A DNA stretch of 64,000 nt from an uncultured virus (IMG/VR IMGVR_UViG_3300035520_000906) (taxonomy: Duplodnaviria > Heunggongvirae > Uroviricota > Caudoviricetes): the IMG/VR virus record IMGVR_UViG_3300035520_000906, one strand, 5' to 3'. A program made the position numbers and the translations under genes. Under the pieces are notes generated by a model. That model worked only from the letters and a program-made list of their open reading frames with translations, was not told where the DNA came from and made no database searches. Each line of letters begins with the position of its first letter. The first letter of the stretch is position 1. This document shows positions 5,559 through 64,000 of the stretch, piece after piece.

Positions 5559-5568
5559 ACTTTTACTA

Positions 5569-6429: not shown

Positions 6430-6451
6430 TATTTTTATGTATCCTTTCTAT

Positions 6452-6931: not shown

Positions 6932-6986
6932 GTTATTCTATCCTTATAAATTTTCTTTTTTTATATTTTTGTGCTTACTCTTATGT

Positions 6987-47999: not shown

Positions 48000-48425
48000 T
48001 TACCCTATATTTCCACAACCCTGTAAACTCATTATGCATGTATTTAGTAATACTATACATGCTACTATTGCTAATATTGTCAGTATTACATAAATTATTA
48101 CTAGTACTATATATACCCACATGACTACTTTTGATGCAATGTTTTTTGGGTACCTTATTCTGGTGTCTATTATCAAAATTACAGATGCTATTTTAAATAA
48201 TACTATTATACATGCATATATTTCCATTGCAGTTGAAGAAATATCGAGTTCTATATTATATGATTTTGAATATATACTATACATTGATAATGCTATTACA
48301 CTGATTATTGTTGGTGTAAACATCAAAATTAAGGATATCAATGTTCTTTTATTTGCAATTTTGTCATTTATATATTGTTGTTCATTATTATCTGTGCATT
48401 GCTTATTATCTTGAAAGTCATCCAT
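48000..48425 (-). CDS. 3-TM membrane protein with Cys-rich C-terminus
   Basis: Ends ACIVLLNTCIMSLQGCGNIG; directly upstream of lgt. Confidence 0.75.
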   Translation of the reverse strand: MDDFQDNKQCTDNNEQQYINDKIANKRTLISLILMFTPTIISVIALSMYSIYSKSYNIELDISSTAMEIYACIIVLFKIASVILIIDTRIRYPKNIASKVVMWVYIVLVIIYVILTILAIVACIVLLNTCIMSLQGCGNIG

Positions 48426-49173
48426 TATTTTTATTAAAGTCCTTTCTCAGGTATAGCATGTTGCCTTCTGTTTTGCTAAGTTGTATTAACTTATGTTGTT
48501 GTGGACTTGAATCTACTGTAATTAGCTCTCTTACTTTCTGTTTTATGTATTCTTCTGCATTGTCAACTTTAATTAAATCCTTTGATAACAACATATCTAC
48601 ATGGTCTAATATATCCCACACCTGTTCTTTTATCTCTTGTTTAATATTCTTATCAACTGTTATGCTACTCTCAAGATTTGTTCTGTATATATTAAACTTA
48701 ACAACTTCTGAATCTGTATTGAATCGTTCTTTCTTATCAACCTTTTGTTCTTTTTGGTCTATAAATGTTTCTGACTCGTGACCTTTAACAAAGTACTGAT
48801 AAAGAAATGCTATTGCCTCATCTTTGGATGGCATCTTACCATTCATCTTCTCGGCAAAATACATATGAAGATTGATTACATTACCACCTTTTTGGCATCC
48901 AAAACAATAAAATGACTCTGTATCTTCATAATATCTAAAAGATGGTGTATCCTCATCATGAAGACAGCAGCAAGCCCTTGGATCATTGTCAAAGTTAACA
49001 GGATAGTTGTCATAATAACTTCCAAGCTGTGGTATTACTATATTATAGAAATACATTGGTATTGTTACATGAGATTTGACAGCTGCTGCCATAGATTTAA
49101 TCTGTGTTGTAGTTTGAACAGTACCTGTTCCTTTATTCTGTTGACCATTGTTAATTATACTACTCATTGTCAA
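48418..49173 (-). CDS. Stand-alone CHC2 (DnaG-type) zinc-finger protein
   Basis: CCLHDEDTPSF...FYCFGCQKGGNVI. Confidence 0.85.
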   Translation of the reverse strand: MTMSSIINNGQQNKGTGTVQTTTQIKSMAAAVKSHVTIPMYFYNIVIPQLGSYYDNYPVNFDNDPRACCCLHDEDTPSFRYYEDTESFYCFGCQKGGNVINLHMYFAEKMNGKMPSKDEAIAFLYQYFVKGHESETFIDQKEQKVDKKERFNTDSEVVKFNIYRTNLESSITVDKNIKQEIKEQVWDILDHVDMLLSKDLIKVDNAEEYIKQKVRELITVDSSPQQHKLIQLSKTEGNMLYLRKDFNKNNG

Positions 49174-49182
49174 CTCCTATGA

Positions 49183-50544
49183 TTAACCTGATATTCTGAA
49201 ACTATTCATTTTCCTCCACTGATTAAACTTAACTTCATAATCAGCTAACTTGTTGTTTGTAATTTCAATATCGTTATAAGGTTTAATTACTGTTACTCTT
49301 GTAAATTCCTCTGTGGCTTTATATTCAACTCTTGCTACTATATTTTCTTTAGCTTCTCTATAGAATTTAATCTTGACAATCGAATCATAACTACAGCCAT
49401 CTCTTGACAACATTATGTTTCTCATAATCATATTTATAAGACCTTCATAATATGCTCTTGGTACTGAAATTGTATCATCTGTTTTTAGTACCTTTAACAT
49501 AGTGTCATATAAATAGCTATTCATTGTAATACTAGAATTTTCTGTGTCATCTTCTGCATTTTCATCTGTATCATCAGGTTCAACTATGCTATCTACACAT
49601 ACCATTTTCTCATGAACATCATCTGGAAGTGGACCATAGCTTTTACTAATTGCTTCCTTATATGAATTGGCCATGTCTTCAAATTTCTTAGCCATTGCAT
49701 TCATATTATTTGTAGCACTTATCAATGCACTTACATACTCATCAGCATTTGTATCTGAATAATTTAACTGTTTATTTTCTACATTTTTAGAATTATTAAC
49801 TAACTGCTCACTAGTTTCATTATCATTAATTGCTGATTCATTATTTTTAACAATGTCTAATGCTAATTCATGATCTAAAATATTCTTAGTTGCTATTGTT
49901 TCTTCCTTTTTGTCTGTTTCTTCTCCTATATGTTGAATTATCTCTTCCTGTGCTTCAACAAGCTTATCCAAAGTGTCATCTGCATTATTTTCTTCAGCTT
50001 TGATATTACTTACACCAGCTTCAAGCTGAAATTTTGATTTAATTTCCTCTTTTTCCTTTGTTTCCTCAATTTCAGTTTGTTCTTCTATTTCTTTCCCAGT
50101 GATTATAGCAATAAACTTATCTGTTTCAATCTGCTTGTTATTGCTTAAATCTATTCTTCTTACTACACTGAACCACTGTTTGTTATAATTTCCTCTGAAT
50201 ATCTCTTCATTCTGACTTGTTATATCTACTGTACACTTAGGATCACATGTGCTATTTATATAATCACTCTGACAGTTATCTAAATATTTCTTCTGTACCC
50301 ATGCTAAAGCTGGTTTCTTTCCAACTTTTGTATCCTGTACAATACCGCATACACCAAATGTTTTGTGATAAAATACTACTGTACCTTTCATGTTACAAGT
50401 TTTATCATAAACTTCTTTTGCATTGTTACTTGTAAAGCCGTATCTCATATAAATTCCAGTTGCTATATCAAAACCACCATACGCAATACTACTATTTTTT
50501 GCATTTACAGGCACTATTAATATATTGTTGTTTTCTGGCTTCAT
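49183..50544 (-). CDS. Hypothetical protein, acidic centre
   Basis: 453-aa ORF with RBS. Confidence 0.75.
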   Translation of the reverse strand: MKPENNNILIVPVNAKNSSIAYGGFDIATGIYMRYGFTSNNAKEVYDKTCNMKGTVVFYHKTFGVCGIVQDTKVGKKPALAWVQKKYLDNCQSDYINSTCDPKCTVDITSQNEEIFRGNYNKQWFSVVRRIDLSNNKQIETDKFIAIITGKEIEEQTEIEETKEKEEIKSKFQLEAGVSNIKAEENNADDTLDKLVEAQEEIIQHIGEETDKKEETIATKNILDHELALDIVKNNESAINDNETSEQLVNNSKNVENKQLNYSDTNADEYVSALISATNNMNAMAKKFEDMANSYKEAISKSYGPLPDDVHEKMVCVDSIVEPDDTDENAEDDTENSSITMNSYLYDTMLKVLKTDDTISVPRAYYEGLINMIMRNIMLSRDGCSYDSIVKIKFYREAKENIVARVEYKATEEFTRVTVIKPYNDIEITNNKLADYEVKFNQWRKMNSFRISG

Positions 50545-50578
50545 CTTGTATATCTCCCTTAAACTTTGTTTTTAATCT

Positions 50579-51415
50579 TTAAAACTTCAAGTTCATATAT
50601 GCTTCAACTTTATCTGCTGTGTCAATTACTACATTACCGTTACTGTCTTTTTCTAATTTTAATTGTTTTATTTCTTCATCATTCAATGCTTTTGAACATA
50701 GAACACTTGCAAAGTTATAAGAATTTGTTCTGTTTAACTGAAAACTTCCTAAGTTATCTTTTATCATTCCTAATGCTAAAATATCTGTCATTGTTCCATC
50801 ATTTAAACTCTTAATGACACCCATTTCATTCTCATTGAGTGGAACCATTCTAAGTAGATGTAACTTTCCTCTCCTACCTGTTACTTCAATATCAATATCT
50901 TTGTATTCACTATCATAATAATCTGTAATAGCTAAACCACTATACTGATTATTTTCATTATTCTCTGCTTCTCCGTATCTTCCAGCTAAGAGCGTTTCAT
51001 ATCTAGCATTTGTAGCAATAATTCCTATCATACGTAATGCTTCTGAAAGTTCCTTGTTATCTTTTACTTCTTCCAATGTTTCTGATACATGTTTTCCATT
51101 GAATACTTCTTTATCTATTGTCATACCATACTCAAAATGATAGTTTGAATCATTACCATCATCTGTAGTACACCAAATATCCTTTGCACTTGCTCCTAAT
51201 GTAATTGCTACATACTTTTCTAAATCAGATGTTGATGCTAATAATATACTGCTACCAGCCTCTGCTCCATCAATACTATCTGTACTAACTACAAAATATT
51301 CAATGTTTTCTTTATCAGTTCCTAGTATTCTAGGAAGTTCCTTAACGAGTGCTTTCTCTGTATCTCTTTTATTTACCTTAGTTTTCACTGACTGCATTAC
51401 ATATATGATGTTCAT
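50579..51415 (-). CDS. Hypothetical protein
   Basis: 278-aa ORF with AGGAG RBS. Confidence 0.75.
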   Translation of the reverse strand: MNIIYVMQSVKTKVNKRDTEKALVKELPRILGTDKENIEYFVVSTDSIDGAEAGSSILLASTSDLEKYVAITLGASAKDIWCTTDDGNDSNYHFEYGMTIDKEVFNGKHVSETLEEVKDNKELSEALRMIGIIATNARYETLLAGRYGEAENNENNQYSGLAITDYYDSEYKDIDIEVTGRRGKLHLLRMVPLNENEMGVIKSLNDGTMTDILALGMIKDNLGSFQLNRTNSYNFASVLCSKALNDEEIKQLKLEKDSNGNVVIDTADKVEAYMNLKF

Positions 51416-51447
51416 TTGTTATTTTCTCCTGTCTTTCTACTTTATTT

Positions 51448-51774
51448 CTATTTTCTTTTATTATTTTTCCCTTGACTTTTAGCATTTTTACGTGCTGTTT
51501 TTTCAATTTCCTTACGTCTTTTTTCTTCCAGTTGTTTAGGATCTTTATATTTGTCTCCACCTGCCATAAACATGACACCGCATTTTAGCCAAGTCAAACC
51601 AAGTTCTTTCTTCTTAGCTTTTACAGTTGCTACATCAACTCCATACATTGTAGCTATCTGTTTAAATGTGTAAGGTGTATCTTTCCATGTTGCTCCAAAC
51701 CATAATCTGTAAAACTCTACTCTAGTGATTTTGTCAAATTCCTCTGGTGTTTTTGTTTGTGTTACCTTTGCCAT
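51448..51774 (-). CDS. Small basic HTH protein
   Basis: TFKQIATMYGVDVATVKAKKKELGL. Confidence 0.7.
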   Translation of the reverse strand: MAKVTQTKTPEEFDKITRVEFYRLWFGATWKDTPYTFKQIATMYGVDVATVKAKKKELGLTWLKCGVMFMAGGDKYKDPKQLEEKRRKEIEKTARKNAKSQGKNNKRK

Positions 51775-51777
51775 ATC

Positions 51778-52884
51778 TTAATATCCTCCTGACTTTAATT
51801 GCTTTGTAAGTACCTTTCTATCTCTGTGTACTACATCTTCTATATCGTACTCTTCATTAAGTTCCTTTACACTTTTTAATCCTGTATACCACCCATATAC
51901 TCTTGATTCAAACATATCATCACTTGCAACTACATTAGAATCTTCATTCATACCAGTCATTCCAGCAGTGTATTTCTCAAATTTTTGTCTGTATGATTCA
52001 TAGTTTTCTTCTGCTTTATTAAACTGTACACATATGTCTGATGTATACATTCCAATGCTTCTGCAACTCATTACTATATCATTTATTACTGTGTATAATA
52101 GTACAACTCTTGTGCTGTCAATCATATCTGTATGAGCTGTATTACAAATAATATTTGATATCTCAATAAGTTTCATTGGAGTTGCTTCTTCATCATAGTC
52201 TTTAGTATCAATAATATTAAAGAAGAACACTGCTATTAACTTATCATCATTTGCCTTTCTAACTTCATACATAAAGCCCTTATCAATATAATTATTTGAT
52301 GCTTCATTTATATAGCTTGTATCCATATTATAAAATTCATTATAGGCTGTGATAAAGTTCTCTATTTCATCTGTTAATTTCTTAATCTTATTGATTTTTA
52401 TATTAACCTTATAAGTTACAAGTCTCTTTTTATGTGCTATTTTTGTATTCCACAGTGGAACTTCCAATGCCATTGTATTACTGTCAAACATCAATATGTT
52501 TTTATCTGTGAGCCATATGTACTCATTCAAATATTTTCTTGTAATCTCTATTAACTGTTTCTTATATTTATTTTTTAGATATGCTAATGTGCCATATACT
52601 GCTATGATATCATCAGTTTTTTTACTGTTACAATCACTACATAATGGTATAAGATTTTCAATCTTATTGTTTCCACCTTTATTTAAAGGTATAAAATGAT
52701 CAACTGTAAAGTCTTTATCCCCAACTGCTATATGTTTACCACACATAGCACATTTGCAATCAGTTTTCTTTGCTACTGCTTCTTTTATATCTCTAGTCAA
52801 CCATTCTCTCTCGTAGTAATTGCATCTATTAAGTTTTACACTATACTCAGAAGTACTTTCTTCCAATTTCTTTATGTCTCCCAT
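51778..52884 (-). CDS. HNH endonuclease with C-terminal extension
   Basis: CAMCG...TVDHFIPLNKGGNNKIENLIPLCSDCNSKK. Confidence 0.85.
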   Translation of the reverse strand: MGDIKKLEESTSEYSVKLNRCNYYEREWLTRDIKEAVAKKTDCKCAMCGKHIAVGDKDFTVDHFIPLNKGGNNKIENLIPLCSDCNSKKTDDIIAVYGTLAYLKNKYKKQLIEITRKYLNEYIWLTDKNILMFDSNTMALEVPLWNTKIAHKKRLVTYKVNIKINKIKKLTDEIENFITAYNEFYNMDTSYINEASNNYIDKGFMYEVRKANDDKLIAVFFFNIIDTKDYDEEATPMKLIEISNIICNTAHTDMIDSTRVVLLYTVINDIVMSCRSIGMYTSDICVQFNKAEENYESYRQKFEKYTAGMTGMNEDSNVVASDDMFESRVYGWYTGLKSVKELNEEYDIEDVVHRDRKVLTKQLKSGGY

Positions 52885-52983
52885 TGAAGTCCAATGCCCT
52901 CTCTTTCTACCCCTAAATATTAAAATAAGCAACTAACTATACTAAACAGTCAGTTGCTTATGTTGTACCTTAATTTTTAGTTG

Positions 52984-53244
52984 CTATTTTGTTTTATTTT
53001 CTTCGTTGTAATAATCTTCCAGTGCTGACTTAACAAATTCTCTATCTTTTAAGTCTGTCAGTCTTGGTAAATCATAAAACTTAGAATAAGTACACATTCT
53101 ACAGCTACAATGAATCTTTCCTTTAGAATACTGCCCATCATGCTTATACCATTCACATCCATCCCAGTATCTATGCACGATATGCTTTCTGTGAGCTATC
53201 TTCCTATTTCTCACATCTCTTCTGTATGATCTTGTTCTGTACAT
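52984..53244 (-). CDS. Small Arg-rich zinc-binding protein
   Basis: KGKIHCSCRMC; AAGGAG RBS. Confidence 0.7.
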   Translation of the reverse strand: MYRTRSYRRDVRNRKIAHRKHIVHRYWDGCEWYKHDGQYSKGKIHCSCRMCTYSKFYDLPRLTDLKDREFVKSALEDYYNEENKTK

Positions 53245-53397
53245 CTCTTTTTTTCTCCTTGATATTATATTTACTTACCCTGTAAGAATCTATCAAGGAT
53301 ACTGATTATTTTAAACAATCAGTTTAAAACTCTTACAGGTTAAGTATGATTTCACTCATACTTAAGTTATCAGTTTTATTCATACTGTTTTTATCTC

Positions 53398-53823
53398 CTA
53401 CTGCATTTGTGATCTTCTTCTCATATGAGACATTCTTGTTAAATTAACTGTCTCTACATTCTGTGCCATTGTATTCATATTCTGACTTCTTCGCAGTTTT
53501 GACATTCTTGTTAAGTTTATTGTTTGTTCATTATTGTTATGAGTTTCATCCCTACTTGATTTAGAATAATCATCATCTGCTTCAATATTAAGTATTGTCT
53601 GTAATGATTCTCTATCTAAATATAATTCCAATTTTCCACACTGTCTACATACCATAAAGCTAGGCGTTACCTCTTTAAATCCTACACCCTTCATAAATGA
53701 ATCTTTAAATCTAGCTGCAAATAGTGTGAATGTTTTAAAGTATGCCCTCTGTACATCTCCAGTATATACTGCCTTCCAGTTATTTAGCTTTATGAGTTCA
53801 TAACCACAATTACTGCACTTCAT
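53398..53823 (-). CDS. Zinc-ribbon protein
   Basis: CSNCG...VCRQCGKLELY; two NLTRMS repeats. Confidence 0.7.
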   Translation of the reverse strand: MKCSNCGYELIKLNNWKAVYTGDVQRAYFKTFTLFAARFKDSFMKGVGFKEVTPSFMVCRQCGKLELYLDRESLQTILNIEADDDYSKSSRDETHNNNEQTINLTRMSKLRRSQNMNTMAQNVETVNLTRMSHMRRRSQMQ

Positions 53824-54183
53824 ACTTTTTCTTTTCCTTTCACTTTATAAGTCTTTTTACTCAATATTATGATAGAGCACCTTAATAATAAAGTGCTCTA
53901 CCACAAGTTTAAGGGGTTATTGAGAAAATCAATGCCAATGACTTGCAAGGTTGCCTGCCATTGAATGAACAAACTCCAAAATTTAATTAAATAAATTTAT
54001 CTCTTATTATCAATATGTAGTATAATAGGGTATCACTTAATGCAAAAAGAGCACCAATTAGTAAACTAATTGATACCCTTAATGCTGGAGTTTTTCTGAT
54101 AAGTACTTATGGCTATACCTATCAGCTGTGTCATTATGACCCATCAAAAAAATATAATAATGATAAGGAGGTAGTTTAACCAC

Positions 54184-54283
54184 AACAGTGTATAGATAAG
54201 TGCATCCACTTATCGTTCCGGCTAGTGTCTTTAAACAACCACACCGCCAATCGACTGACATTCCGCCGTCTAAATCAACTGTT
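54184..54283 (-). ncRNA. Candidate multi-branch structured RNA
   Basis: AACAGT/ACTGTT closing stem, CGGC/GCCG, GATAAGTG-GATG-CACTTATC hairpin. Confidence 0.45.
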
Positions 54284-54303
54284 TCCCACTATCAAGTTAA
54301 TAG

Positions 54304-54372
54304 AGCAGGCAGCCTGCTTTGAACAGGGCTTCCAATCTGGACGATTGATGTGCCATCCTACACTACTGCCGC
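54304..54372 (-). pseudogene. Degenerate tRNA-Gly(UCC)
   Basis: Cloverleaf GCGGCAG...TCAAT-CG TCC AG-ATTGG...CCTG TTCAAAG CAGG; bulged acceptor stem, G at position 33. Confidence 0.55.
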
Positions 54373-54414
54373 ATATCTTACTTATTAATAAAAAATTATA
54401 CTATTTTTTCTATA

Positions 54415-55343
54415 TTATCTTAAATTGTATGATTTTATCCAACAATGAATCGTTGAATCAGTTCTCCCATACATGCTGGCAATTTGTTTCTTTTGTATAC
54501 CAGCATCTAAGAGTTGTTTTAACTCTTCTTTAGATGGTTTTGGTGACTTTCCCTTTGCTGCTACATTTGAACATGCATTACACATTCCAGTCTTTGATTG
54601 TGATGTTATTGGTTTACCACATATTCTGCATGTTATTTTCTTATTACTTGCTTTAGCTACTTTACATTCTTTCATGTTATCATATTCATTTTTCCAGTCA
54701 TTAAATTGTTTATAATACTTATCTATGTCTTCACAATACAAAAAATGCATACTTAAATATTTATTTTTATACTTACATGCCTTACTTATTGCTTCTACCA
54801 CTGTCCATTTATTTAATGCTTGTGGTATATTTTCACTTATTAAGTACTCGGCACATTGTGAATAATTAACAAAAATTTTATTTAATTCTACACATATTAT
54901 CTGTCTACTTTGTGTTCTTATTTTAACCTTATTAGCTGATAATAATGTCAAAATTGTAATATCTGAACAATTATATTTTCTTGCTATATATATAACGAAC
55001 TATATCCAGATTTATATAATTGTATAATATCATCTATATCATCTTCTAATTTAGAATATGGTGCATTTCCACCAGGTGTTGAATTATACCCATTCTTATA
55101 TGAGTTAAAATATGAAATCCAATAAATTTCTCTTTCATTCAGTAGCTTACTATCACATTCCTCTATTAATTCAATATAAAAGTTATCAGACCCATACTTT
55201 TTTATTGCTCTATATAATTTAAGATGTTCACCTCTAGTATTTGCTATGTGTTCCTCAAATCTTTTACTTATAGGTCTTATTGTTTGCCCTATGTAAACTC
55301 TGCTATTAATCTTATTTCTAATTGCATAAATATATCCTATCAT
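54415..55343 (-). pseudogene. GIY-YIG homing endonuclease split by an extra TA in a (TA)5 run
   Basis: GYIY...YIGQT...REIYWI...GYN; removing TA near 54985 fuses both ORFs through HTH SSLYIARKYNCSDITILTLL. Confidence 0.8.
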
Positions 55344-55391
55344 ACTATGTACTCTCTTGTGTATGTGTCAAAATGCTTAATGATATTATAA

Positions 55392-55476
55392 TGCCGGTAA
55401 CAGGACTTGAACCTGCACCAGTATTTAGCTGAATAGGACCTAAACCTATCGCGTCTGCCAATTCCGCCATACCGGC
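55392..55476 (-). tRNA. tRNA-Leu(UAG)
   Basis: GCCGGTA acceptor, ATAGG-TT TAG GT-CCTAT, long variable arm, GTTCAAGTC; no encoded CCA. Confidence 0.95.
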
Positions 55477-55571
55477 ATGTATCTTTTGTTTTAATAAAGG
55501 GAGGTGACGAGCCTCCCCGACCTACGCAAATGTTGTCATCATTCTGCGTGGAACTATGTTTTAGTTCCAAA

Positions 55572-55683
55572 GCACTTTTAGCAAGAGTTGCACTTGCATT
55601 TTGTAATGATTACTACTTTCTTTCATAATTTAGAAAATAGCTCGCGCTACAAAACTGATACTAACTGCTCATCATAAAAGCAC
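55572..55683 (-). ncRNA. tRNA-like RNA with extended anticodon arm
   Basis: Acceptor-like GTGCTTTTA/TAAAAGTGC, D-like hairpin, T-arm GCAAG-TGCAACT-CTTGC. Confidence 0.55.
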
Positions 55684-55958
55684 ACGGTATATAGACCTTT
55701 GCAACTATATACCATTTTGAGGTGATTTCTGTTTCTGTGTCATGTAGATTTTCACTTACTCTTGAAGCTACTTTTTCAACTATAAGTATATATCGTTTCA
55801 ACTTATAGTCTATACATTACGTTACTGTGTCCAGGTCTGCCTCGTGCGTTGGCACGCTTTTACATTCATTTAATCCCTTATGTACTAGCCTATCATAATA
55901 TATTATGGAACCTTATATAAGGCTGAATGACAGGTTTTAAATTGTAATCCTATTAAAA

Positions 55959-56540
55959 TTAAATGTTTCCTCTAGGGAAATTCATTCTTACATATGATAT
56001 TGCATCACTACTCAATAAGTCAAATGCATTGTCCCCATACAAAAATTGAAGCTCATTTGCAATCATTAATTGTGTGATTAGTCCCTTGTTATCGTCTGCT
56101 AAACCAGATAAATCTTTGAAATCTTTTTCTCTATATGATACTAATTTCATACATATAGCATCTAAATCACATATTTTATATACGTTTAAGCAACTGTATG
56201 ATTTTACTGGAATTGCATTTGCCTTTAACCTAACACTAAATGATTTTGTTTTAGTTGCATCTGTATTTAACCAGTCACTTGTGATTGAATACATATGTTT
56301 TACTTTGTTTATACATGACTTTATATCAATGGATGGCTCAATATAACTATCAATATCTTCTGTCATTGTTCTAAATGTATGCCCTAATATCAATGATGAT
56401 CCACCAACTAATAACATATCAATCTTAATGTACCCATATTTTTCAAATATGCAATTATTAAGTGCTTCCAAATATATGTTCATGTTATATTTACTTATAT
56501 ATGGATATTCAGCTTCGTGTGGCATGTATTCCTCCAACAA
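55959..56540 (-). CDS. DUF6036 / AbiEii-like nucleotidyltransferase
   Basis: LLVGGSSL...RTMTEDIDS...MKLVSYREKDFKD. Confidence 0.8.
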   Translation of the reverse strand: MLEEYMPHEAEYPYISKYNMNIYLEALNNCIFEKYGYIKIDMLLVGGSSLILGHTFRTMTEDIDSYIEPSIDIKSCINKVKHMYSITSDWLNTDATKTKSFSVRLKANAIPVKSYSCLNVYKICDLDAICMKLVSYREKDFKDLSGLADDNKGLITQLMIANELQFLYGDNAFDLLSSDAISYVRMNFPRGNI

Positions 56541-57000
56541 CTGTATCTATCTCTGACACGATTAAATTGTATTTATAGAATATATCTATTCTATTTTTAT
56601 AACTATCTAGTATCTTATTATATGCCCCAAAGTTACTAAACATAACAGGAGTCTCACCAAATAATAGTTTATCTAATTTCTTACCATTGTATAAACTAAC
56701 TATCTCTGGTAATTCGAGATTTTCGCTATTACAAATATATTCAATGTATGCTATTGCATATAGTTGCTCCCACTCTCTCCACAATGATATTCTTTCTTTC
56801 GAAAGATATTCATATATTAACTTTTCACTACCCCAAGATTTTCTGTAATGCTCTAATGCACTTATAAAGGAATAGTAATTTGTATAATCATATTCTTTGT
56901 AATAATCTAAATGCAGTGATTCAAATTCCTCTTTGCATTTTAATTGGTACTCATTGTATTGTTTTTCTTCTTCTGGAGTAATATCAAACATATTTTTCAT
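56509..57000 (-). CDS. Partner (putative antitoxin) of the DUF6036 gene
   Basis: Overlaps the downstream gene; LYAIAYIEYIC...LPEI...Y..KKL. Confidence 0.6.
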   Translation of the reverse strand: MKNMFDITPEEEKQYNEYQLKCKEEFESLHLDYYKEYDYTNYYSFISALEHYRKSWGSEKLIYEYLSKERISLWREWEQLYAIAYIEYICNSENLELPEIVSLYNGKKLDKLLFGETPVMFSNFGAYNKILDSYKNRIDIFYKYNLIVSEIDTVVGGIHATRS

Positions 57001-57020
57001 GCTATTTTCTCCTATTAAAG

Positions 57021-57127
57021 TGACATATACCTCTAGTTCTAGTGAACTAATCGACTAGAACGATCTGAAACTGAAACCCATAAGAGAAAGAGAGGGTCGT
57101 TCACGTCAAACTAGATAATATATGTCA
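57021..57127 (-). ncRNA. Long interrupted hairpin with pyrimidine-rich loop
   Basis: TGACATATA/TATATGTCA, TCTAGTT/AACTAGA, GAACGA/TCGTTC nested stems. Confidence 0.5.
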
Positions 57128-57159
57128 GTACTAAACCTCTAGTAAGTTTAATACTTAAT

Positions 57160-57469
57160 TCATTTCAATAACCTACACATGCACCCTATCGTCTGCACCC
57201 TGCCTCTATCACTTCTATACAGAAGTGACCTATCCAACATCCTTGGTTATTGAACATTGTCATCGCCACCAGTGATGACTTACAGTAGTCATTTGCCACC
57301 TTGAGAAGTTCGTTACCGACTCGTATGGGAACTTAGGTTCTACTTCTCTCAACTACTCCATAGTCGTATCGTTGTCGACCAACGTCAACCCTTAATCATT
57401 CCCGCTCATGCGGGCTCATCCCTGAGGAACATCATATAAAATATGTGCTATTCCGTTGAGCATCCTCAG
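57160..57469 (-). ncRNA. Unrecognised ~310-nt structured RNA, copy B
   Basis: Paralog of 57531..57835 with identical 23- and 33-nt blocks and compensatory stem changes. Confidence 0.8.
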
Positions 57470-57530
57470 TAGATTAGCAGACTTTTACTGCATTGATCAC
57501 TTAAGCATACAGTTTAATTATATGCTTAAG

Positions 57531-57835
57531 TCATTACATAGCCTACTGCTAGATAAATCTAGTCCACAACCTCTCCACAACCTTAGCTATGTACATTGCC
57601 ACCGCCACAGTGATGACTTATGATAGTAATTTAACAACCTTGAGAAGTTTGTTACCAACTCATACTCCCTAGGCCTAATAAACTTTCGTTTAAACTCCTG
57701 TTTGTATGGGAACTTAGGTTCTACTTCTCTCAACTATCCCTTAGCTGTATCGCTTTCAGCCGACGTCAACCATTAACTGTTTAATGAGGAACACATATAA
57801 AACGAGTCATAAGTGCTATTCCGTTGAGCATCCTC
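57531..57835 (-). ncRNA. Unrecognised ~305-nt structured RNA, copy A
   Basis: Starts 3 nt after tRNA-Leu; covaries with copy B. Confidence 0.8.
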
Positions 57836-57838
57836 TAA

Positions 57839-57918
57839 TGCGGATAGAGGGACTCGAACCCTCAAGCCGAAGCGTGGCAGCTTAAATGCCATGTGTTTGC
57901 CAATTTCACCATATCCGC
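57839..57918 (-). tRNA. tRNA-Leu(UAA)
   Basis: GCGGATA acceptor, TGGCA-TT TAA GC-TGCCA, GTTCGAGTC. Confidence 0.95.
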
Positions 57919-58746
57919 TTATTTTATACTTTCTATAAATTTATTGTATTTTCTCTGCATAACTCCGTATTGTTTATTCTTTGTTATATAGAGCTGTCTA
58001 AATTTTGTAAAGGATTCTTTACTGTGTATATAGATAATCCTAATACTGTCTCTACTGCTTACACTGTATTCTATACCAATACCTCTTAGTATTTCTTGTA
58101 TACCTTCTGCATTTGAATAATTAGATGCTATTGTTATAGCATTAGGAGATACTGACACAGAACCATCCCCATCAAAGAACCCAATCATAAAATCTATTCT
58201 ATACTCGTAAGGTATATAATTTATAAATGGTATGTCCTTGTACTTTTTACCCTGTACTATCCCAAATTTTGCAAGGTCATTTACTATTTCATCTGAAATT
58301 ATCTTAATGTTTACTGCATCAAATTCATGTTTAATTCCATTGCTATCAGTATAACTAGCTGTGTGGTCATGAACTTCATAGTCAGACTCAGTAAATTCTA
58401 GAAATCTTTGTAATGTCTCTCTATCTCTTGCATTTAATACAAATCTTAATGAGTTATCTACAACACTTCCATCAGATGCTATAAATCCTAACCAATATGC
58501 TGTATCTGCATTAATTGTTTTGAATATATTGTCATTTACCTTATGCTTTCTGAAATCTTTTTCAGGACATTTTTCTTTTCCAGTGTATCCCTTTAATCCT
58601 TGATTTGTCTTAAATACACCAATCCTAATAGCATGTTCTCTATATGTTTTGTAGTTTATTCCAAGCATTCTTGCTGCTTCAGCAGCTGATCTAGAGTTCT
58701 CTGCCGCATATGCAATTTGTGCATCTGTTACATCTATTGTATTCAT
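57919..58746 (-). CDS. Double-motif LAGLIDADG homing endonuclease with N-terminal HTH
   Basis: AYWLGFIASDGSV and DFMIGFFDGDGSV; stop codon abuts the tRNA. Confidence 0.9.
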   Translation of the reverse strand: MNTIDVTDAQIAYAAENSRSAAEAARMLGINYKTYREHAIRIGVFKTNQGLKGYTGKEKCPEKDFRKHKVNDNIFKTINADTAYWLGFIASDGSVVDNSLRFVLNARDRETLQRFLEFTESDYEVHDHTASYTDSNGIKHEFDAVNIKIISDEIVNDLAKFGIVQGKKYKDIPFINYIPYEYRIDFMIGFFDGDGSVSVSPNAITIASNYSNAEGIQEILRGIGIEYSVSSRDSIRIIYIHSKESFTKFRQLYITKNKQYGVMQRKYNKFIESIK

Positions 58747-58769
58747 TTCATTACACCCGCTTTATAAAA

Positions 58770-59305
58770 GTGGCTTAAGGTCACCACAACCGCACATCTG
58801 TTGATTACTGGAACATTTGCTCTTTCCAATAGTTGTCTTTCCAACTGTCCACCAGTTTAACCTAGCTAATGCCACGTAGTATAGACTTCAGCTTAAGAAC
58901 TCAACCTTCCTAAGTCATACCCGATTTATGTCGGGATATCCACCCACTCTATCTAACTGGCAAGTAATCCACTATGGTGCTTCCAACCAGTTTGTAGAAC
59001 TCAACCACATTTGTCTACTTGTGCTACCCCAATATACTTCACAGTAGCTTTCCACATTCAATTTTGCAGGTCATTCCAACCCACTGGACAGACTCAACCA
59101 TCAACATACTGTCTTGTATCGCCCCATTGACTTGCCCATAGCGACTTTCCAACCACATGCATTCTCGGGAACTTCCCGAAGGTCCATGCAAACCTTTCAA
59201 ATTGCCGTCGACAAGCAATACGAGGTAGGTCATTCACACTAGCTTAACTACACCTGAGCTGCTCGATAACATGCCGCCTTGTTAAGTTCCCTCTAACAGT
59301 GCTCT
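58770..59305 (-). ncRNA. Large ornate ncRNA (~540 nt), ROOL/GOLLD-like in size and context
   Basis: GC-richer non-coding block after tRNA-fMet with more than 10 hairpins and repeated GGTTGAGT and GGTTGGAA motifs. Confidence 0.7.
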
Positions 59306-59310
59306 TTGAG

Positions 59311-59384
59311 TTGCGGGGATAGGACTTGAACCTACATACTCTTGGTTATGAGCCAAGTGAGCTTCCATTGCTCGTCACCCCGCG
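59311..59384 (-). tRNA. tRNA-fMet(CAU), initiator-like
   Basis: CGCGGGG with C1:A72 mismatch; CTTGG-CT CAT AA-CCAAG. Confidence 0.9.
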
Positions 59385-59394
59385 ATAATATAAA

Positions 59395-59524
59395 TTTGTG
59401 ACCTTCCACAATCACAATGCTGAGAAAATCTGTAAATCCACAGTTGTATACAACTGCCTCAGCCCTACACATTAGTGCCTCAGAAGGTTTCCGCTTTTAT
59501 GTGCCACCTACAAGTAATCACAAA
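59395..59524 (-). ncRNA. Candidate 130-nt structured RNA
   Basis: TTTGTGA/TCACAAA, GCACAT/ATGTGT, GCTGAG/CTCAGC, CAGTTG-TATA-CAACTG. Confidence 0.55.
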
Positions 59525-59585
59525 GAAGAAAATGTACACTTTCTTTACTGAGTGTGTACTAACTCTTTTAAGGTCTTTCGACCAG

Positions 59586-59659
59586 TGGACCATGTAGGAC
59601 TCGAACCTACGACCGCTCGGTTATGAGCCGAATGCTCTGACCAACTGAGCTAATGGTCC
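59586..59659 (-). tRNA. tRNA(CAU), probably Ile2 (lysidine)
   Basis: GGACCAT acceptor and body typical of Firmicute tRNA-Ile2; CT CAT AA loop. Confidence 0.85.
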
Positions 59660-59687
59660 AAATTTTAATGTAGTTCTTATCTTTTAA

Positions 59688-59763
59688 TGTAACAAGGAAA
59701 TAACTTACTAACTGATGCCTCGTCAATGATGTCTTACCTGCGTTCAGCCACTTCCTTACTACA
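59688..59763 (-). ncRNA. Candidate small RNA, 18-bp G-U-rich stem
   Basis: TGTAGTAAGGAAGTGGCT pairs with AGTTATTTCCTTGTTACA. Confidence 0.55.
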
Positions 59764-59765
59764 AG

Positions 59766-59841
59766 TTGGAATGCTGGGATTCGAACCCAGGACAGACGTG
59801 GGGTATAAGCCTACCGCTCTAACCAACTGAGCTACATTCCA
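59766..59841 (-). tRNA. tRNA-Ile(UAU)
   Basis: TGGAATG/CATTCCA acceptor, GTAGG-CT TAT AC-CCCAC (one mismatch), GTTCGAATC. Confidence 0.85.
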
Positions 59842-59889
59842 TTAATATGTATTATCAGAAATTACTTTCTGTCTCAACCTTACTTAATT

Positions 59890-59918
59890 ATTATATCATC
59901 TTTACTTTCTTTTGTCAA
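59890..59918 (-). promoter_or_regulatory. Consensus sigmaA promoter
   Basis: TTGACA-17 nt-TATAAT with extended TG. Confidence 0.9.
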
Positions 59919-59982
59919 GAACTTTTTAAAACCTTTTTCAAATAAATTTGAAATCAATTTTTATATCCTTAACACATTTATT

Positions 59983-60011
59983 ATATTATCATATAATATT
60001 TATTTTGTCAA
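59983..60011 (-). promoter_or_regulatory. Second tandem sigmaA promoter
   Basis: TTGACA-17 nt-TAATAT with extended TG. Confidence 0.65.
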
Positions 60012-60046
60012 CTACTTTTTTCAAAAATTTTTTATATTTTGAAAAG

Positions 60047-60129
60047 TGTAGGTAGTGGGACTTGAACCCACACTCATTAAATGAACAGCATCCTTAGTGC
60101 TGCCTGTCTGCCAATTCCAGCATACCTAC
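60047..60129 (-). tRNA. tRNA-Leu(AAG)
   Basis: GTAGGTA acceptor, CAGCA-CT AAG GA-TGCTG, long variable arm. Confidence 0.9.
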
Positions 60130-60142
60130 AAATCTTTATAAG

Positions 60143-60222
60143 TGCTCCCTGAGGGACTTGAACCCTCACCCTCTCGGAACAGATTTTGAATCTGTCGTGT
60201 CTGCCTATTCCACCAAAGGAGC
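60143..60222 (-). tRNA. tRNA-Leu(CAA)
   Basis: GCTCCTT acceptor, ACAGA-TT CAA AA-TCTGT. Confidence 0.95.
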
Positions 60223-60235
60223 TTACTTATTAAAG

Positions 60236-60312
60236 TGGAGCCTACGTGAATCGAACACGCCTGATTTCCTCTTTGCAAGAGAGGTGACCACCCCAATGCA
60301 GTCCCAGACCCC
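60236..60312 (-). tRNA. tRNA-Ala(UGC)
   Basis: G3:U70 pair, CCTCT-CT TGC AA-AGAGG. Confidence 0.9.
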
Positions 60313-60379
60313 ATATTACAGGAACCTATTATTCTTTACACCAAAAGAGTTTTAATTGCTGTATGGTTCCCAATATAAA

Positions 60380-60453
60380 TCGACGTTGCCGGATTCGAAC
60401 CGACGGCCTCTTGATCCCAAATCAAGCGCTCTACCAAACTGAGCCAAACGTCG
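60380..60453 (-). tRNA. tRNA-Pro(UGG)
   Basis: CGACGTT acceptor, CTTGA-TT TGG GA-TCAAG. Confidence 0.95.
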
Positions 60454-60465
60454 TTATTATTTTAG

Positions 60466-60544
60466 TGTGCCTAGAGGGACTTGAACCCTCACGCCGAAGC
60501 AACTGGGCTTAAACCAGTTGTGTCTGCCATTCCACCACAGGCAC
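60466..60544 (-). tRNA. tRNA-Leu(UAA)
   Basis: GTGCCTG acceptor, ACTGG-TT TAA GC-CCAGT. Confidence 0.95.
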
Positions 60545-60579
60545 ATTTATTTGTATCTCTTAATCATTTCTACACTCTT

Positions 60580-60607
60580 ATTATACATCATAATTACTTT
60601 TTGTCAA
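60580..60607 (-). promoter_or_regulatory. sigmaA promoter heading the tRNA array
   Basis: TTGACA-16 nt-TATAAT. Confidence 0.8.
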
Positions 60608-60679
60608 CTACTTTTTTAAAAATTTATTAGAAAAATTTCATAATGTTTTACTAATTTTTAGTTAAGTTTAATAAACATA

Positions 60680-60775
60680 CTAACTGTATTGGTATGTTTC
60701 AATGTTTATCAATCTTAAGTTTGTTTTGGCTCCCAATATAGCAGGGTCACCGAGGTCAGCTAATGCGGGGTCCAT
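60680..60775 (-). CDS. 31-aa small ORF
   Basis: AGGAGG RBS; MDPALADLGDPAILGAKTNLRLINIETYQYS. Confidence 0.4.
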   Translation of the reverse strand: MDPALADLGDPAILGAKTNLRLINIETYQYS

Positions 60776-60794
60776 CTTGTTTCCTCCTGTACAT

Positions 60795-60833
60795 AAAAAT
60801 AACCGTTAAGCTCATTCAATGGCTTAACGGTTA
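60795..60833 (-). terminator. Intrinsic terminator
   Basis: TAACCGTTAAGC/GCTTAACGGTTA stem plus T-run. Confidence 0.75.
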
Positions 60834-60874
60834 GTATCTTTATTATGAAAGTCATTAAATTAGCTAAAACCCTA

Positions 60875-60979
60875 TTAAATTTGCACGTTTATAAGACCTA
60901 TCAAAGCTAATATTGATAGGTTTGCTAGTGCTGCGGGTAAGCTAACTATGCTATTTACATTATTTCTAATGCAATCCAT
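60875..60979 (-). CDS. 34-aa hydrophobic small ORF
   Basis: AAGGAG RBS; MDCIRNNVNSIVSLPAALANLSILALIGLINVQI; followed by a terminator. Confidence 0.45.
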   Translation of the reverse strand: MDCIRNNVNSIVSLPAALANLSILALIGLINVQI

Positions 60980-61034
60980 GACTTTTTCTCCTTAAATATT
61001 TATTAAAAACATACTTTTATTATGTGAATGTAGT

Positions 61035-62228
61035 TTATTTCGTCTTTAATTTTTCTCTCAGGCTTTCACAATCTATTTGTCCAAGCTTTCTTTGTTTCTT
61101 TAATTCACTTATGCATTCTCTTATCTTTATATCTCTAATTGAATCAACACTTATAGCTGTTACATATGATGTTTCTAATTCAGTACTTATGTATAAACTT
61201 TGTAATCTCTCAAGCCTCATAAAATTTGTAACTGATAATGATTTTAAATTCTTAGGAAACTTAACATCAACTGGATATGTATTCATAAATATTCCATCAT
61301 GCAACTTCTCTATTTTTGTATCGTATATATCTATGATTTCTAATGGAGTAAATTTGAATGCCTGACTACCTATCAATCTTAAATCTCCACTTATAGAAAT
61401 TTTATGTATGTGAGATGTTAAGAATGCTCCAGTTCCTATTATACTAAGTTTATCATTAAAATCTACTGTCAAATCACACTCTGAGCAATATGCAAATGCA
61501 AAATCTCCAATCTCTGTTACATTGTCTCCTAATCTAACATAAGATAGTCCTTTACAATTTGCAAATGCTGTTTTACCTATTTTTTCTACTGAATTACCTA
61601 TGTAAATACTTTTTATATGTGTATCACAAAAAGATTTGTCTGCTATGTATTTTACAAAGTCAGGTATTACTAGCTGACTATTTATGTCTTTGCTATTTCT
61701 ATATCCTGTAACTACTAATTCATTGTACAAGTCAAAATCATAAGATAATGTACTCTTACCAGTCATTGCTAATTTATAATTATATGATTCCATCTTATAA
61801 ATTAGATATGCTCGTTTATTTATTGTAGGTATCTTACCAAATTTAGTTGTTATACCATTACCAACAAATTGAATACCACTAAACTTATCTCTGTTGCTCT
61901 TTATTTCTTGTAATGTCATTCTTCTTAAAATACAATTATTATCTGCCACTAGATATGCTCCATCTTGGAATTTAAAAAGAATAACTAATTTATTTCTTAG
62001 GTCTACTACTGTACCTTTTCTATTATAGTTTACAAGTATTATCTTTTTATATTTACTGTCTGGTACGTAATGTTCTGCCTTTACTGCTTTCCCACTTTGT
62101 ATCATACTATCTATTTCGTATTGAGTTATACTTGTTATTGTCATATAATTTGTATTTATTGCACTATATATTTCTCCATAGGGTTCTTCTGATGCTTTAT
62201 ATAATATAATTGTATAATTACTATTCAC
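61035..62228 (-). CDS. BspA-type LRR protein
   Basis: IGKTAFANCKGLSYVRLGDNVTEIGDFAF. Confidence 0.88.
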   Translation of the reverse strand: MNSNYTIILYKASEEPYGEIYSAINTNYMTITSITQYEIDSMIQSGKAVKAEHYVPDSKYKKIILVNYNRKGTVVDLRNKLVILFKFQDGAYLVADNNCILRRMTLQEIKSNRDKFSGIQFVGNGITTKFGKIPTINKRAYLIYKMESYNYKLAMTGKSTLSYDFDLYNELVVTGYRNSKDINSQLVIPDFVKYIADKSFCDTHIKSIYIGNSVEKIGKTAFANCKGLSYVRLGDNVTEIGDFAFAYCSECDLTVDFNDKLSIIGTGAFLTSHIHKISISGDLRLIGSQAFKFTPLEIIDIYDTKIEKLHDGIFMNTYPVDVKFPKNLKSLSVTNFMRLERLQSLYISTELETSYVTAISVDSIRDIKIRECISELKKQRKLGQIDCESLREKLKTK

Positions 62229-62255
62229 TTTGCACCTCCCTATAATTTTGATTGT

Positions 62256-63050
62256 TTATCTTTTAAATAAGCTGAATATTGACACTTTCTTATCTTTATC
62301 TCCAGGATATTCTGTCTCAATAAGTTTGTTAGCTGTCATTTTATTTTTTATTGATTGCTTTCTATAATTGTTTTTATAGGTATCTCTAAGTCTTACTTCA
62401 AATTCACTTAATATATCTCTGCTACCACACCTATAAACCTTAACTTCAACTGTACTCTTAAACACATCAGATATGTCTACTTGATTTGATTTGGTTTCTA
62501 TCTCACCCTCATGTATTTCAGTTGAGTCACTTCTATCTGATACATCATCATTGTATCTTATAATTACTTTTAAATTTTCAGGTTTTTGATTATTTACATT
62601 AAATAGTATATTGTAATCTGAAAAATAGTATGTTCCATTCTCAGTCATGTCACCATAATATCTTGTTCCGCAGTCTACTTTATTTATTATTTTAACATCT
62701 GCATTATACTTATACATACCGAGTAATGCAGCAGCTTTTACTGCTATATCATCTATTTCTGCAAAGGTGTCTTTCGGATTTTTTCTTGTAGGTGCATCCT
62801 TAGTTGCATGCTCACCCTTAAATTCTTTTCTCAAACTGAAATCTGATGAGTCACTTATTTTTGGTGTTGTTGACATTAATCTTCCATCTGATGTTAATGT
62901 TAAATTATCAACTTTTAGTTTATTTGATGCTATTAAATTTTTTAACTCAGTTGCACCTATGTCCTGTATATTTCTGTTAGCATCTTGTAGTTTGTATCCT
63001 ATTATTTTTCCTGTATTGTCTCTAAATTTATATATACAGGTTACTTCCAT
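62256..63050 (-). CDS. Hypothetical protein with recurrent N-terminal module
   Basis: EVTCIYKFRDNTGKIIGYKLQD...ELKNLIASNKLKVDNLTLTSDGRL. Confidence 0.8.
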   Translation of the reverse strand: MEVTCIYKFRDNTGKIIGYKLQDANRNIQDIGATELKNLIASNKLKVDNLTLTSDGRLMSTTPKISDSSDFSLRKEFKGEHATKDAPTRKNPKDTFAEIDDIAVKAAALLGMYKYNADVKIINKVDCGTRYYGDMTENGTYYFSDYNILFNVNNQKPENLKVIIRYNDDVSDRSDSTEIHEGEIETKSNQVDISDVFKSTVEVKVYRCGSRDILSEFEVRLRDTYKNNYRKQSIKNKMTANKLIETEYPGDKDKKVSIFSLFKR

Positions 63051-63071
63051 TTCTATACTACCTCCTTAAAT

Positions 63072-64000
63072 CTATCTGTTTAGTTCAATTACCTCCATGA
63101 AATAATCATAATCTTGCCTGTATAAACTGTACATTTCCACTAAGCTTATCCAACCAAGTCTATGAAATTCTTCTTCTGTTATTGCTTTGTAATTTGCTTT
63201 ATTATGTTTTCCAGTTTTCATAGCTCGTAATGTATCTTTAGTGTATAAGTCTATTTCCTTTAAAGATTTAGTTGTTGATATTCTAGGAAATGAATACATT
63301 GCCCAACCAAATGTTGTATCATTACTTATTGCACAAAATAAATTTTTATTATTAAGCTGTCTTATTATTCTTCTTGCTACTATTTCAAATGACTCATGAT
63401 CTTTTTCAATACATATTCTACCTTTTCTACACCATCTATGTATTTGTTTCTTAATCTTTTGTTTTGCATGGTCAGATATGTCTATCTTCCCATCGCCCAT
63501 TAGCTTAAGTCCTAAATACTCTATGTCATCTCCAGGCTCGAACCATGTATATTTTTCTGGATTCATTGTTAATCCATACTGCTCCAAAAAATCAATTATT
63601 ATATCTAAGTCTTTTTGTAAATCCTCTTTTGACTTATCTAAAACTATTATGTCATCACTATATCTTGCATATACCTTATTTTTATCTTCAAAGTATTCAT
63701 CACAAGGTTTTAAACACCAATTTGCAAAGAAGCTTCCAAATGCACACCCAGGAATTAATGCCTTCCATTCTTCAATTTCTTTGCCGTTCCACATAACTTT
63801 ATCAGATAACATTAAATTTTCAACAGTCTTTTTTAATCCCCCATTGAATAATTCATTTATCATTTCAGCAACCTTTTCTCTTGAAACGCTGTTGAAATAA
63901 GCATGTATGTCAACCTTTACACCAAATCTAAGTTCATCATTTCTATTATCCTTGATGTATTGAATTGCATGACCTGTACTTTCACCAGTTTTATATGAAA
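63072..64000 (-). CDS. Reverse transcriptase (YSDD) with maturase-like C-terminus; 5' end outside the window
   Basis: Frame open to the edge: SYKTGES..AI, KVDIHAYFNSV, LIPGCAFGSFFAN, YARYSDD, GLTMNPEK, IEYLGL, GWAMY..SLKEIDLY..LR. Confidence 0.92.
   Translation of the reverse strand, partial: SYKTGESTGHAIQYIKDNRNDELRFGVKVDIHAYFNSVSREKVAEMINELFNGGLKKTVENLMLSDKVMWNGKEIEEWKALIPGCAFGSFFANWCLKPCDEYFEDKNKVYARYSDDIIVLDKSKEDLQKDLDIIIDFLEQYGLTMNPEKYTWFEPGDDIEYLGLKLMGDGKIDISDHAKQKIKKQIHRWCRKGRICIEKDHESFEIVARRIIRQLNNKNLFCAISNDTTFGWAMYSFPRISTTKSLKEIDLYTKDTLRAMKTGKHNKANYKAITEEEFHRLGWISLVEMYSLYRQDYDYFMEVIELNR

Follow-up and report, generated by a model that had tools for sequence, protein, structure and literature searches.

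The window analysed in this work, the whole 64,000-nucleotide (nt) stretch of an uncultured virus filed as IMG/VR record IMGVR_UViG_3300035520_000906, is AT-rich, phage-like DNA and probably includes the transfer RNA (tRNA) island of a large uncultured gut phage. Its long open reading frames (ORFs) all lie on the minus strand, as does every window feature discussed below, and encode a family A DNA polymerase, many homing endonucleases and leucine-rich repeat (LRR) proteins of the BspA type. In blastn comparisons with GenBank phages the window matches only at its tRNAs, and no close relative was found. Read along the minus strand, the tract in question runs from a reverse transcriptase (RT) gene through two ORFs and a leader into five tRNA genes, the promoters P2 and P3, genes for tRNA-Ile, tRNA-Met and a tRNA-Met-like molecule, and a structured RNA termed X. 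After X follow a LAGLIDADG gene, a tRNA-Leu gene, the structured RNAs A and B, a nucleotidyltransferase operon, another tRNA-Leu gene and a split GIY-YIG gene, and the tract ends with a tRNA-like element (54301-54382), a 130-nt structured element and terminators. The spacers have a G+C content of 0.40-0.48 versus about 0.27-0.30 in coding DNA. The original prediction placed a battery of genuine non-coding RNAs (ncRNAs) among the tRNA genes, and this is borne out for X, A, B and the 130-nt element, all of which are conserved with compensatory base changes. X and the A/B pair are moreover matched by contigs from RNA libraries, and A/B-type RNA is found apart from the RT.

Relatives of the tract were reached via the RT, which yielded 440 homologues of about 415 amino acids (aa), many of them on contigs of 200-720 kb; an alignment of 27 RT homologues led to 79 metagenome loci. 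Two loci are most informative. L012 (RT 72% identical, 245,760-bp contig) and L008 (RT 59% identical, 496,540-bp contig) both carry a tRNA island right after the RT, and L012 keeps the order of RT, island and homologues of seven genes that lie downstream of the tract in the window (48418-53823).

RNA A (57528-57838) and RNA B (57160-57493) are tandem paralogues of a multi-helix RNA of about 300 nt. They share 76% identity, long invariant runs alternating with insertions and deletions that are confined to hairpins. A single copy of this A/B type is present in L012 (15596-15880) and in L008 (14306-14600), and the 5' hairpin of RNA B (57477-57491) recurs, with changed stems, ahead of both. A covariance model of the 164-position A/B core, R1, scores 154 bits on A and 179.6 bits on B. 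Compared with shuffled sequences, the fold of B has a z-score of -2.91; that of A alone is no better than shuffles (z -0.45). For the four sequences together RNAalifold predicts 59 pairs, 20 of which have both sides changed, with 95.8% of the cells paired. Shuffled alignments give 10.8 +/- 2.0 such double changes, the count of 20 was reached in none of 500 shuffles, and only 0-4 were obtained when the 3' partners were slid.

When R1 was run over the window and 80 RT-centred loci, these four were the only A/B-type members. A scan of IMG/VR with the invariant 5' motif returned five loci (L081-L085). One, L081, was rejected as a chance match within coding sequence. The other four are IMG/VR records of one phage, identical over 900 nt, with an R1 score of 63.9 bits (E 1e-17); they supply a fifth A/B-type sequence that is independent of the R1 training set. 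With all five sequences fitted to the model, 97% of the cells are paired and 19 of 42 pairs show double changes, compared to 8.9 +/- 2.1 in shuffles, and a separate run of MAFFT and RNAalifold gave 50 pairs, 25 of them compensatory. A candidate long-range pairing joins UCAAY in the invariant 5' loop with RUUGA and covaries, with C-G in A and B and U-A in the other three; since the sequences are related, this counts as one event and is no more than a lead. A T-box-like UGGN loop was rejected, the loop not being kept in L084. Scans of viral, metagenome and genome contig collections for exact motifs of the A/B core returned no match, and neither did blastn of the L084 RNA against GenBank phages.

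In L084 the A/B-type RNA lies within an ORF-free gap of 1.34 kb (4152-5491) behind a CHAP endolysin gene. It is preceded there by two tandem structured repeats of about 110 nt each (about 4730-4930) and by a short stretch resembling the acceptor and T arm of a tRNA (about 4310-4370). None of the four records L082-L085, each of which has one A/B-type RNA, shows an RT by protein or Pfam search (0/4), nor a tRNA or a match to the DNA polymerase of the window; the records are fragmentary (up to 235,843 bp, estimated 21-75% complete), so they cannot prove absence.

RNA X (58770-59309) is about 480-540 nt long and ends in a terminator-like hairpin (58787-58770). Homologues occur in L012 (15225-15590) and L008 (13925-14300), in each case directly before the A/B-type copy. 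The best-conserved part of X is its 5' portion of about 100 nt, module M (59219-59308), which is tandemly doubled in L012. Of the 13 pairs predicted for module M five are compensatory; a covariance model of it, R2, scores 62.7 bits on the window's X and found no members beyond the window, L012 and L008 among the 80 RT-centred loci scanned. The 130-nt element (54165-54300) folds better than all of 200 shuffles (z -3.38, 0/200 as good), and with its homologue in L012 (14670-14806) it forms 27 pairs, eight of them compensatory. In L012 it follows a different tRNA.

RNA-library evidence comes from two animal-gut metatranscriptome runs from two studies, which contain 6-7% of the tract's sequence words; contigs were fitted at a likeness of at least 85%, and 58 and 41 of them fit the tract in the two runs. 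A 549-nt contig (letters 2-529) covers 57254-57800 at a depth of 5064, and a 464-nt contig covers 57348-57800 at a depth of 7077. Two contigs of 499 and 476 nt align to 58824-58967 and 59145-59291, with 182 other letters in between, at depths of 1087 and 1316. Short high-depth contigs from RNA libraries thus coincide with A+B and with X, falling almost entirely within them, and the high-depth contigs are confined to these two. In one contig an Illumina adapter follows position 59291, a hint that an RNA ends where the conserved module M begins. Within copy B, two variants in the contigs (57377 G>A and 57365 C>T, plus strand), taken together, replace a C-G pair by U-A. Further contigs lie on 55782-55938 and 59348-59574 and cover the spacer elements 55838-55933 and 59395-59524. 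Among the contigs listed, none lies over the LAGLIDADG or nucleotidyltransferase ORFs, a finding that does not imply silence because the relatives from which the contigs stem may lack these genes.

A/B, X and the 130-nt element belong, as far as we can judge and with a good measure of confidence, to no described RNA family. A search with the 4227 families of Rfam 15 at E<=10 over positions 53300-61100 of the window and 15100-16200 of L012 returned only tRNAs and sub-threshold, unrelated matches, and no description of these RNAs was found in open-access papers and preprints. RNase P RNA, tmRNA, 6S, OLE, raiA, HEARO and introns were considered and dismissed, none giving an Rfam match. The closest parallels are ROOL and GOLLD. 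ROOL (RF03087) is reported as a large multi-helix phage RNA that neighbours tRNA genes, was discovered in rumen data and is very abundant as RNA (PMC5737381, 10.1101/2024.12.08.627333), and its position near tRNA islands in phages (PMC5737381) is shared by A/B and X. No match reached the ROOL gathering score of 99.1 bits; there was none at E<=10 in the window and L012 15100-16200 and none at E<=1 in L012 and L008, in a search for which the ROOL of another relative, L005 (3083-3673, 308.3 bits), served as positive control. The RNAs of the window differ from the ROOL consensus in conserved motifs and helix layout, and A/B has about half the length of ROOL. GOLLD is described as lying near phage tRNA islands, with a conserved 3' region, a variable 5' region and sometimes tRNAs in the linker (10.1101/2024.12.08.627333). 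The layout here is similar: an A/B-type domain stands behind differing 5' parts (X, or other sequence in L084), and a tRNA lies between X and A. No Rfam match to GOLLD was obtained at E<=10 in the window or L012, in a search run without a GOLLD positive control, and unlike a single GOLLD molecule X and A+B appear as separate RNA contigs.

The island RNAs thus behave as modules, because the linker between X and A/B has been invaded in the window, A/B has been doubled and the 130-nt element stands beside a different tRNA in L012. In L012 and L008 only a short linker, which contains a conserved hairpin, lies between X and the A/B-type RNA, in ORF-free gaps of 1.07 and 1.2 kb, respectively; at the linker position the window has the LAGLIDADG gene and a tRNA-Leu gene. 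The LAGLIDADG and GIY-YIG genes, the nucleotidyltransferase operon and the two ORFs that follow the RT in the window are missing from L012, and no homologue of the two endonucleases or of the operon was found in L008 either. Since L012 keeps the surrounding gene order, the endonucleases, the operon and the two post-RT ORFs are, judged by gene comparison, lineage-specific insertions. In L005 (262-kb contig, RT 60% identical) the tRNA island carries the above-mentioned ROOL instead. Other features of this island (2430-7736) are a tmRNA (5353-5743), a tRNA to which ARAGORN assigns a four-base anticodon (ttaa; 2752-2828) and a weak RAGATH-33-like match (4066-4173).

The transcriptional layout separates the island from the RT. 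The leader between the RT operon and the island (60545-61034) has a mean column identity of 70% in the alignment with L012 and L008. It contains a terminator hairpin closing the RT operon (60800-60833), the pairing of which is kept through changes in both relatives, and two small ORFs (60875-60979, 34 aa; 60680-60775, 31 aa), each with a Shine-Dalgarno site. The 34-aa ORF is kept in L012 and L008 and resembles a small hydrophobic peptide. Promoter P1 (60607-60580) agrees with the consensus at 12 of 12 positions, and its hexamers are kept in L012 and L008. Because the conserved, covarying terminator, the small ORFs and the conserved island promoter lie between them, the RT operon and the island form two transcription units. 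Two more promoters, P2 (60011-59983, 10 of 12 consensus positions) and P3 (59918-59890, 12 of 12), have a TG before the -10 hexamer. The three sigmaA-type promoters claimed originally were all recovered as sigma-70-type sites by a consensus scan; in the region as a whole such sites are not in excess (54 found vs 52 +/- 7.1 in shuffles). At its far end the tract is closed by terminator-like hairpins, namely 54047-54080 and a long hairpin within 53860-53960 (z -5.53).

Taken together, we consider it likely that the island encodes new RNA families of the ROOL/GOLLD kind, which would be transcribed together with the tRNAs, accumulate stably and act in trans, and would not be templates for the RT. 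The proposed course of events is as follows. The sigma-70-type promoters would drive joint transcripts of tRNAs and ncRNAs, and the 5' ends of A and X would be released when RNase P and RNase Z excise the tRNAs. RNA A begins 1-3 nt past the discriminator base of tRNA-Leu (57839) and X directly past the tRNA-Met-like gene (59310). Hairpins would define the 3' ends; tRNA processing probably sets the ends of the ncRNAs in part, with intrinsic terminators contributing as well. Once folded, the RNAs may build up and serve during infection as trans-acting structural RNAs. By analogy, the most likely role is a structural or sequestering one in the take-over of translation or in counter-defence, templating of the RT being the least likely. 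A narrower version of this idea is possible, though we hold it with less than even confidence: A/B and X could be two new classes that do as ROOL and GOLLD do, forming RNA-only assemblies or a catalytic core that acts on host translation or defence, with A/B as an autonomous module that unrelated large phages exchange and that can work as a tandem pair. ROOL and GOLLD are reported to form RNA-only cages as seen by cryo-electron microscopy (10.1101/2024.12.08.627333).

Several points weigh against the reading as new, co-transcribed, trans-acting families. Only five distinct A/B-type and three distinct X sequences are at hand, and scans with exact motifs (metagenome and genome collections) and degenerate motifs (genome and viral collections) as well as blastn against GenBank phages yielded no further members. 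The covariation counts rest on few independent events, because the sequences are few and two of the A/B copies are paralogues within one genome. The RNA evidence consists of assembled contigs of relatives that are 85-95% alike and not of raw reads of the window phage; depth is one value per contig, and the RNA libraries may contain DNA. Co-transcription and processing by tRNA enzymes are read from anatomy, promoters and RNA contigs, and the function is drawn from the analogy with ROOL and GOLLD. Finally, X and A may be two separate RNAs or, less probably, domains of one two-domain RNA.

The latter possibility, that X and the A/B-type domain make up one giant GOLLD-like RNA of which the linker was invaded and the 3' domain duplicated in the window, has perhaps one chance in a few of being correct. 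It would account for the adjacency of X and A/B-type RNA in the short ORF-free gaps of L012 and L008 and for the unrelated phage (L084), in which the A/B-type domain occupies the 3' end of the gap behind a different 5' part, and such a layout is the one reported for GOLLD (10.1101/2024.12.08.627333). On the other hand, the contigs of X and A+B are separate and differ in depth (1087-1316 vs 5064-7077), X has a terminator-like hairpin at its end, copy B is not preceded by an X and GOLLD gave no Rfam match. Far less probable is that the elements have no function of their own and represent plain precursor spacers, decayed tRNA genes and debris of endonuclease genes. The chance-level folds of five of the 11 listed elements, without homologues in L012 or L008, would fit such debris, as would the decayed-looking tRNA-like element 54301-54382 and the split GIY-YIG gene in the tract. 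For X, A/B and the 130-nt element, however, this reading is contradicted by their compensatory changes, by the retention of A/B-type RNA in a phage that has no detected tRNA and no detectable DNA polymerase in common with this one and by the restriction of high-depth contigs to X and A+B, while for 59688-59763, 57021-57127 and 55572-55683 it is the likeliest one. Least credible of all is the view of the LAGLIDADG gene and the structured RNA around it as a self-splicing intron with its homing endonuclease. A LAGLIDADG ORF amid GC-rich structured RNA is indeed the usual look of a group I intron, yet Rfam at E<=10 matches neither group I nor group II introns, the relatives join the flanking RNAs without this ORF and no gene is interrupted. 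Furthermore, a terminator-like hairpin and a complete tRNA gene flank the ORF, and among the joints listed for the RNA contigs, the only material examined for them, none spans 58747-57918.

Another alternative concerns the RT. The gene is cut by the window edge (63072-64000; 308-aa fragment, RVT_1 E 7e-19), and its end at 63072 indeed lies 2.5 kb before the first tRNA, as had been pointed out. A full-length homologue, P0001 (92% identical), matches the PADLOC profile RT_UG26 with E 9.3e-86 (residues 6-401 on positions 5-396 of 398), the second-best RT profile being UG27 (E 3.5e-42). By this profile match to P0001 the window's RT is a UG26-type class 2 UG/Abi enzyme; its own fragment was compared with Pfam and PHROGs only. 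A retron assignment was rejected, since NCBIfam retron_St85_RT gives 66 bits versus a cut-off of 235 and, in L012 and the window, the gaps flanking the RT gene measure only 15-21 nt. UG26 is listed as a class 2 UG/Abi group with its role left open, and the same source describes UG27 as phage-borne with an adjacent ncRNA and ncRNAs as common among class 2 UG RTs (PMC9226505). For the sister group UG27, arrays of ncRNA units of about 150 nt are reported to template complementary DNA (cDNA; preprint 10.64898/2026.09.22.753630).

It could accordingly be put forward that the UG26 RT uses the island RNAs as templates or partners in the manner of the UG27 arrays, a proposal we regard as improbable. 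In its favour, besides the UG27 precedent and the frequency of ncRNAs among class 2 UG RTs, the RT lies 0.5-2.5 kb from a tRNA island, on either side, in the window, L012, L008, L005 and L010, and it neighbours such an island in the window as well as in four of the five loci with an RT of at least 52% identity and usable flanks. In L012, L001 and L009 no non-coding gap exceeding 55 nt is present beside the RT gene, so any RNA partner must lie further off. The window indeed resembles the UG27 systems in combining a phage class 2 UG/Abi RT with several structured ncRNAs nearby. The UG27 units, however, are described as hairpins of about 135-167 nt that repeat within a single intergenic region next to the RT and two accessory proteins (10.64898/2026.09.22.753630), while the RNAs of the window are 130-540 nt long, of unlike kinds, mixed with tRNAs and situated behind a terminator, and one kind occurs without a detected RT. 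The island lacks repeated units of about 150 nt; its only repeated RNA is the A/B pair, with about 300 nt per copy, at a distance of 5 kb from the RT. The conserved terminator followed by the island's own promoters likewise speaks against the proposal, and so do the four records of another phage with A/B-type RNA, in none of which an RT was found. R1 matches occur in only two of the 80 RT-centred loci. When ten RT loci were scanned with ARAGORN, tRNAs were present in the flanks of five (L005, L008, L010, L011 and L012); L009, L014, L016 and L017 have no tRNA in the available flanks. On the synteny check proposed originally, for co-occurrence of RT and ncRNAs, most RT relatives lack these RNAs in the available flanks: among these ten loci A/B-type RNA is present in two and ROOL in one, namely L005. 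The suggested link between RT and ncRNAs is not upheld, in view of the separate transcription units and of A/B-type RNA in phage records without a detected RT.

To our knowledge, ROOL and GOLLD are among the few large bacterial or phage RNAs still without a known function. The new families are unrelated to both but share their niche, and one lineage has ROOL where relatives have X and A/B, so that phage tRNA islands may generally house interchangeable large structural RNAs. At about 300 nt, and apparently highly expressed, they are compact candidates for structural and functional study. The analysis also removes a tempting but unsupported tie to the neighbouring RT, whose group, UG26, is uncharacterised.

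Not all of the 11 folded elements listed originally fare equally well. X, A, B and 54184-54283, which lies within the 130-nt element, are upheld by conservation and compensatory changes. Three hairpins (55478-55571), the last of them terminator-like, hold up by their fold, the stretch 55497-55569 beating 200 of 200 shuffles (z -3.35). A hairpin in the Pro-Ala spacer (60321-60370, z -1.63) is conserved with 83% identity in L012, but its stem is invariant and shows no covariation. The remaining five (59688-59763, 59395-59524, 57021-57127, 55838-55933 and 55572-55683; z -1.3 to -2.1) have no homologue in L012 or L008, and their folds are no more than expected by chance. The spacers 59660-59764 and 59385-59584 give fold z-scores of -1.98 and -1.50, and those at 55782-55938 and 55572-55700 of -1.32 and -1.95, respectively.

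The tRNA tract is co-oriented as described: ten tRNA genes share the minus strand between 55391 and 60544 according to ARAGORN, nine of which are also called by Rfam. The first block (60046-60544) comprises Leu(taa), Pro(tgg), Ala(tgc), Leu(caa) and Leu(aag). Four of these five are seen by Rfam; the fifth, tRNA-Ala(tgc) (60235-60312), is called by ARAGORN only and missed by the Rfam tRNA model even at E<=10, and its counterpart in L012 scores just 36.5 bits. Genes for tRNA-Ile(tat), tRNA-Met and a weak tRNA-Met-like molecule (43.9 bits) follow at 59310-59841, both programs agreeing. tRNA-Leu(taa) (57839-57918) abuts the stop codon of the LAGLIDADG gene on one side and the 5' end of RNA A on the other, and tRNA-Leu(tag), called by ARAGORN and Rfam, lies at 55391-55477.

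The tRNA-like element 54301-54382, which had been overlooked before, is 88% identical to L012 15043-15119 and better conserved than the true tRNAs of the island. The L012 sequence is a tRNA-Gly(tcc) by ARAGORN but has no Rfam match at E<=1; the element in the window is called neither by ARAGORN nor by the Rfam tRNA model (RF00005) and so does not qualify as a canonical tRNA. As judged by eye, the anticodon stems of the two differ by paired changes, position 33 is a G and the acceptor stem is bulged. The element may be an odd tRNA or a tRNA mimic.

As to the protein-coding genes of the tract, both predicted homing endonucleases were found by profile search. The LAGLIDADG enzyme (57919-58746; LAGLIDADG_3 E 1.4e-11, phrog_4645 E 1.4e-32) is free-standing. 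The GIY-YIG gene is split (phrog_314 E 1.5e-27): an ORF with the catalytic domain (54984-55343, GIY-YIG E 6.6e-10) ends in a stop and is followed by a second ORF (54415-54951) with a zinc-finger-like motif and a helix-turn-helix domain (HTH_23 E 5.3e-5), an arrangement that points to a broken gene or to a two-piece enzyme. The nucleotidyltransferase pair is confirmed in one partner: the protein encoded at 55959-56540 belongs to the DUF6036 nucleotidyltransferases (E 2.5e-11), but the ORF overlapping it (56509-57000) matches nothing. Together with a leader (57001-57149) these ORFs form an insert (55959-57149) that is window-specific as a whole. Atlas and PDB searches with the proteins of this operon were uninformative, and protein-based locus searches of viral contigs with the DUF6036 protein and the RT fragment yielded no relatives.

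Between RT and island lie the genes for a 264-aa protein of no assigned family (62256-63050) and a BspA-type LRR protein (61035-62228). Neither has a homologue in L012 or L008, and an LRR homologue follows the RT in L001. In L001, L011, L012, L014 and L016 the RT is followed by a protein of about 290-350 aa that belongs to no known family (26-65% mutual identity); a blastp search of the window, L005, L008, L009 and L017 found no counterpart behind the RT. L011, L014 and L016 have a gap of 250-600 nt between the RT and this protein. Elsewhere in the window, the gene for the family A DNA polymerase (26941-30561) sits between two large HNH/homing-endonuclease ORFs (25180-26916 and 30636-32636).

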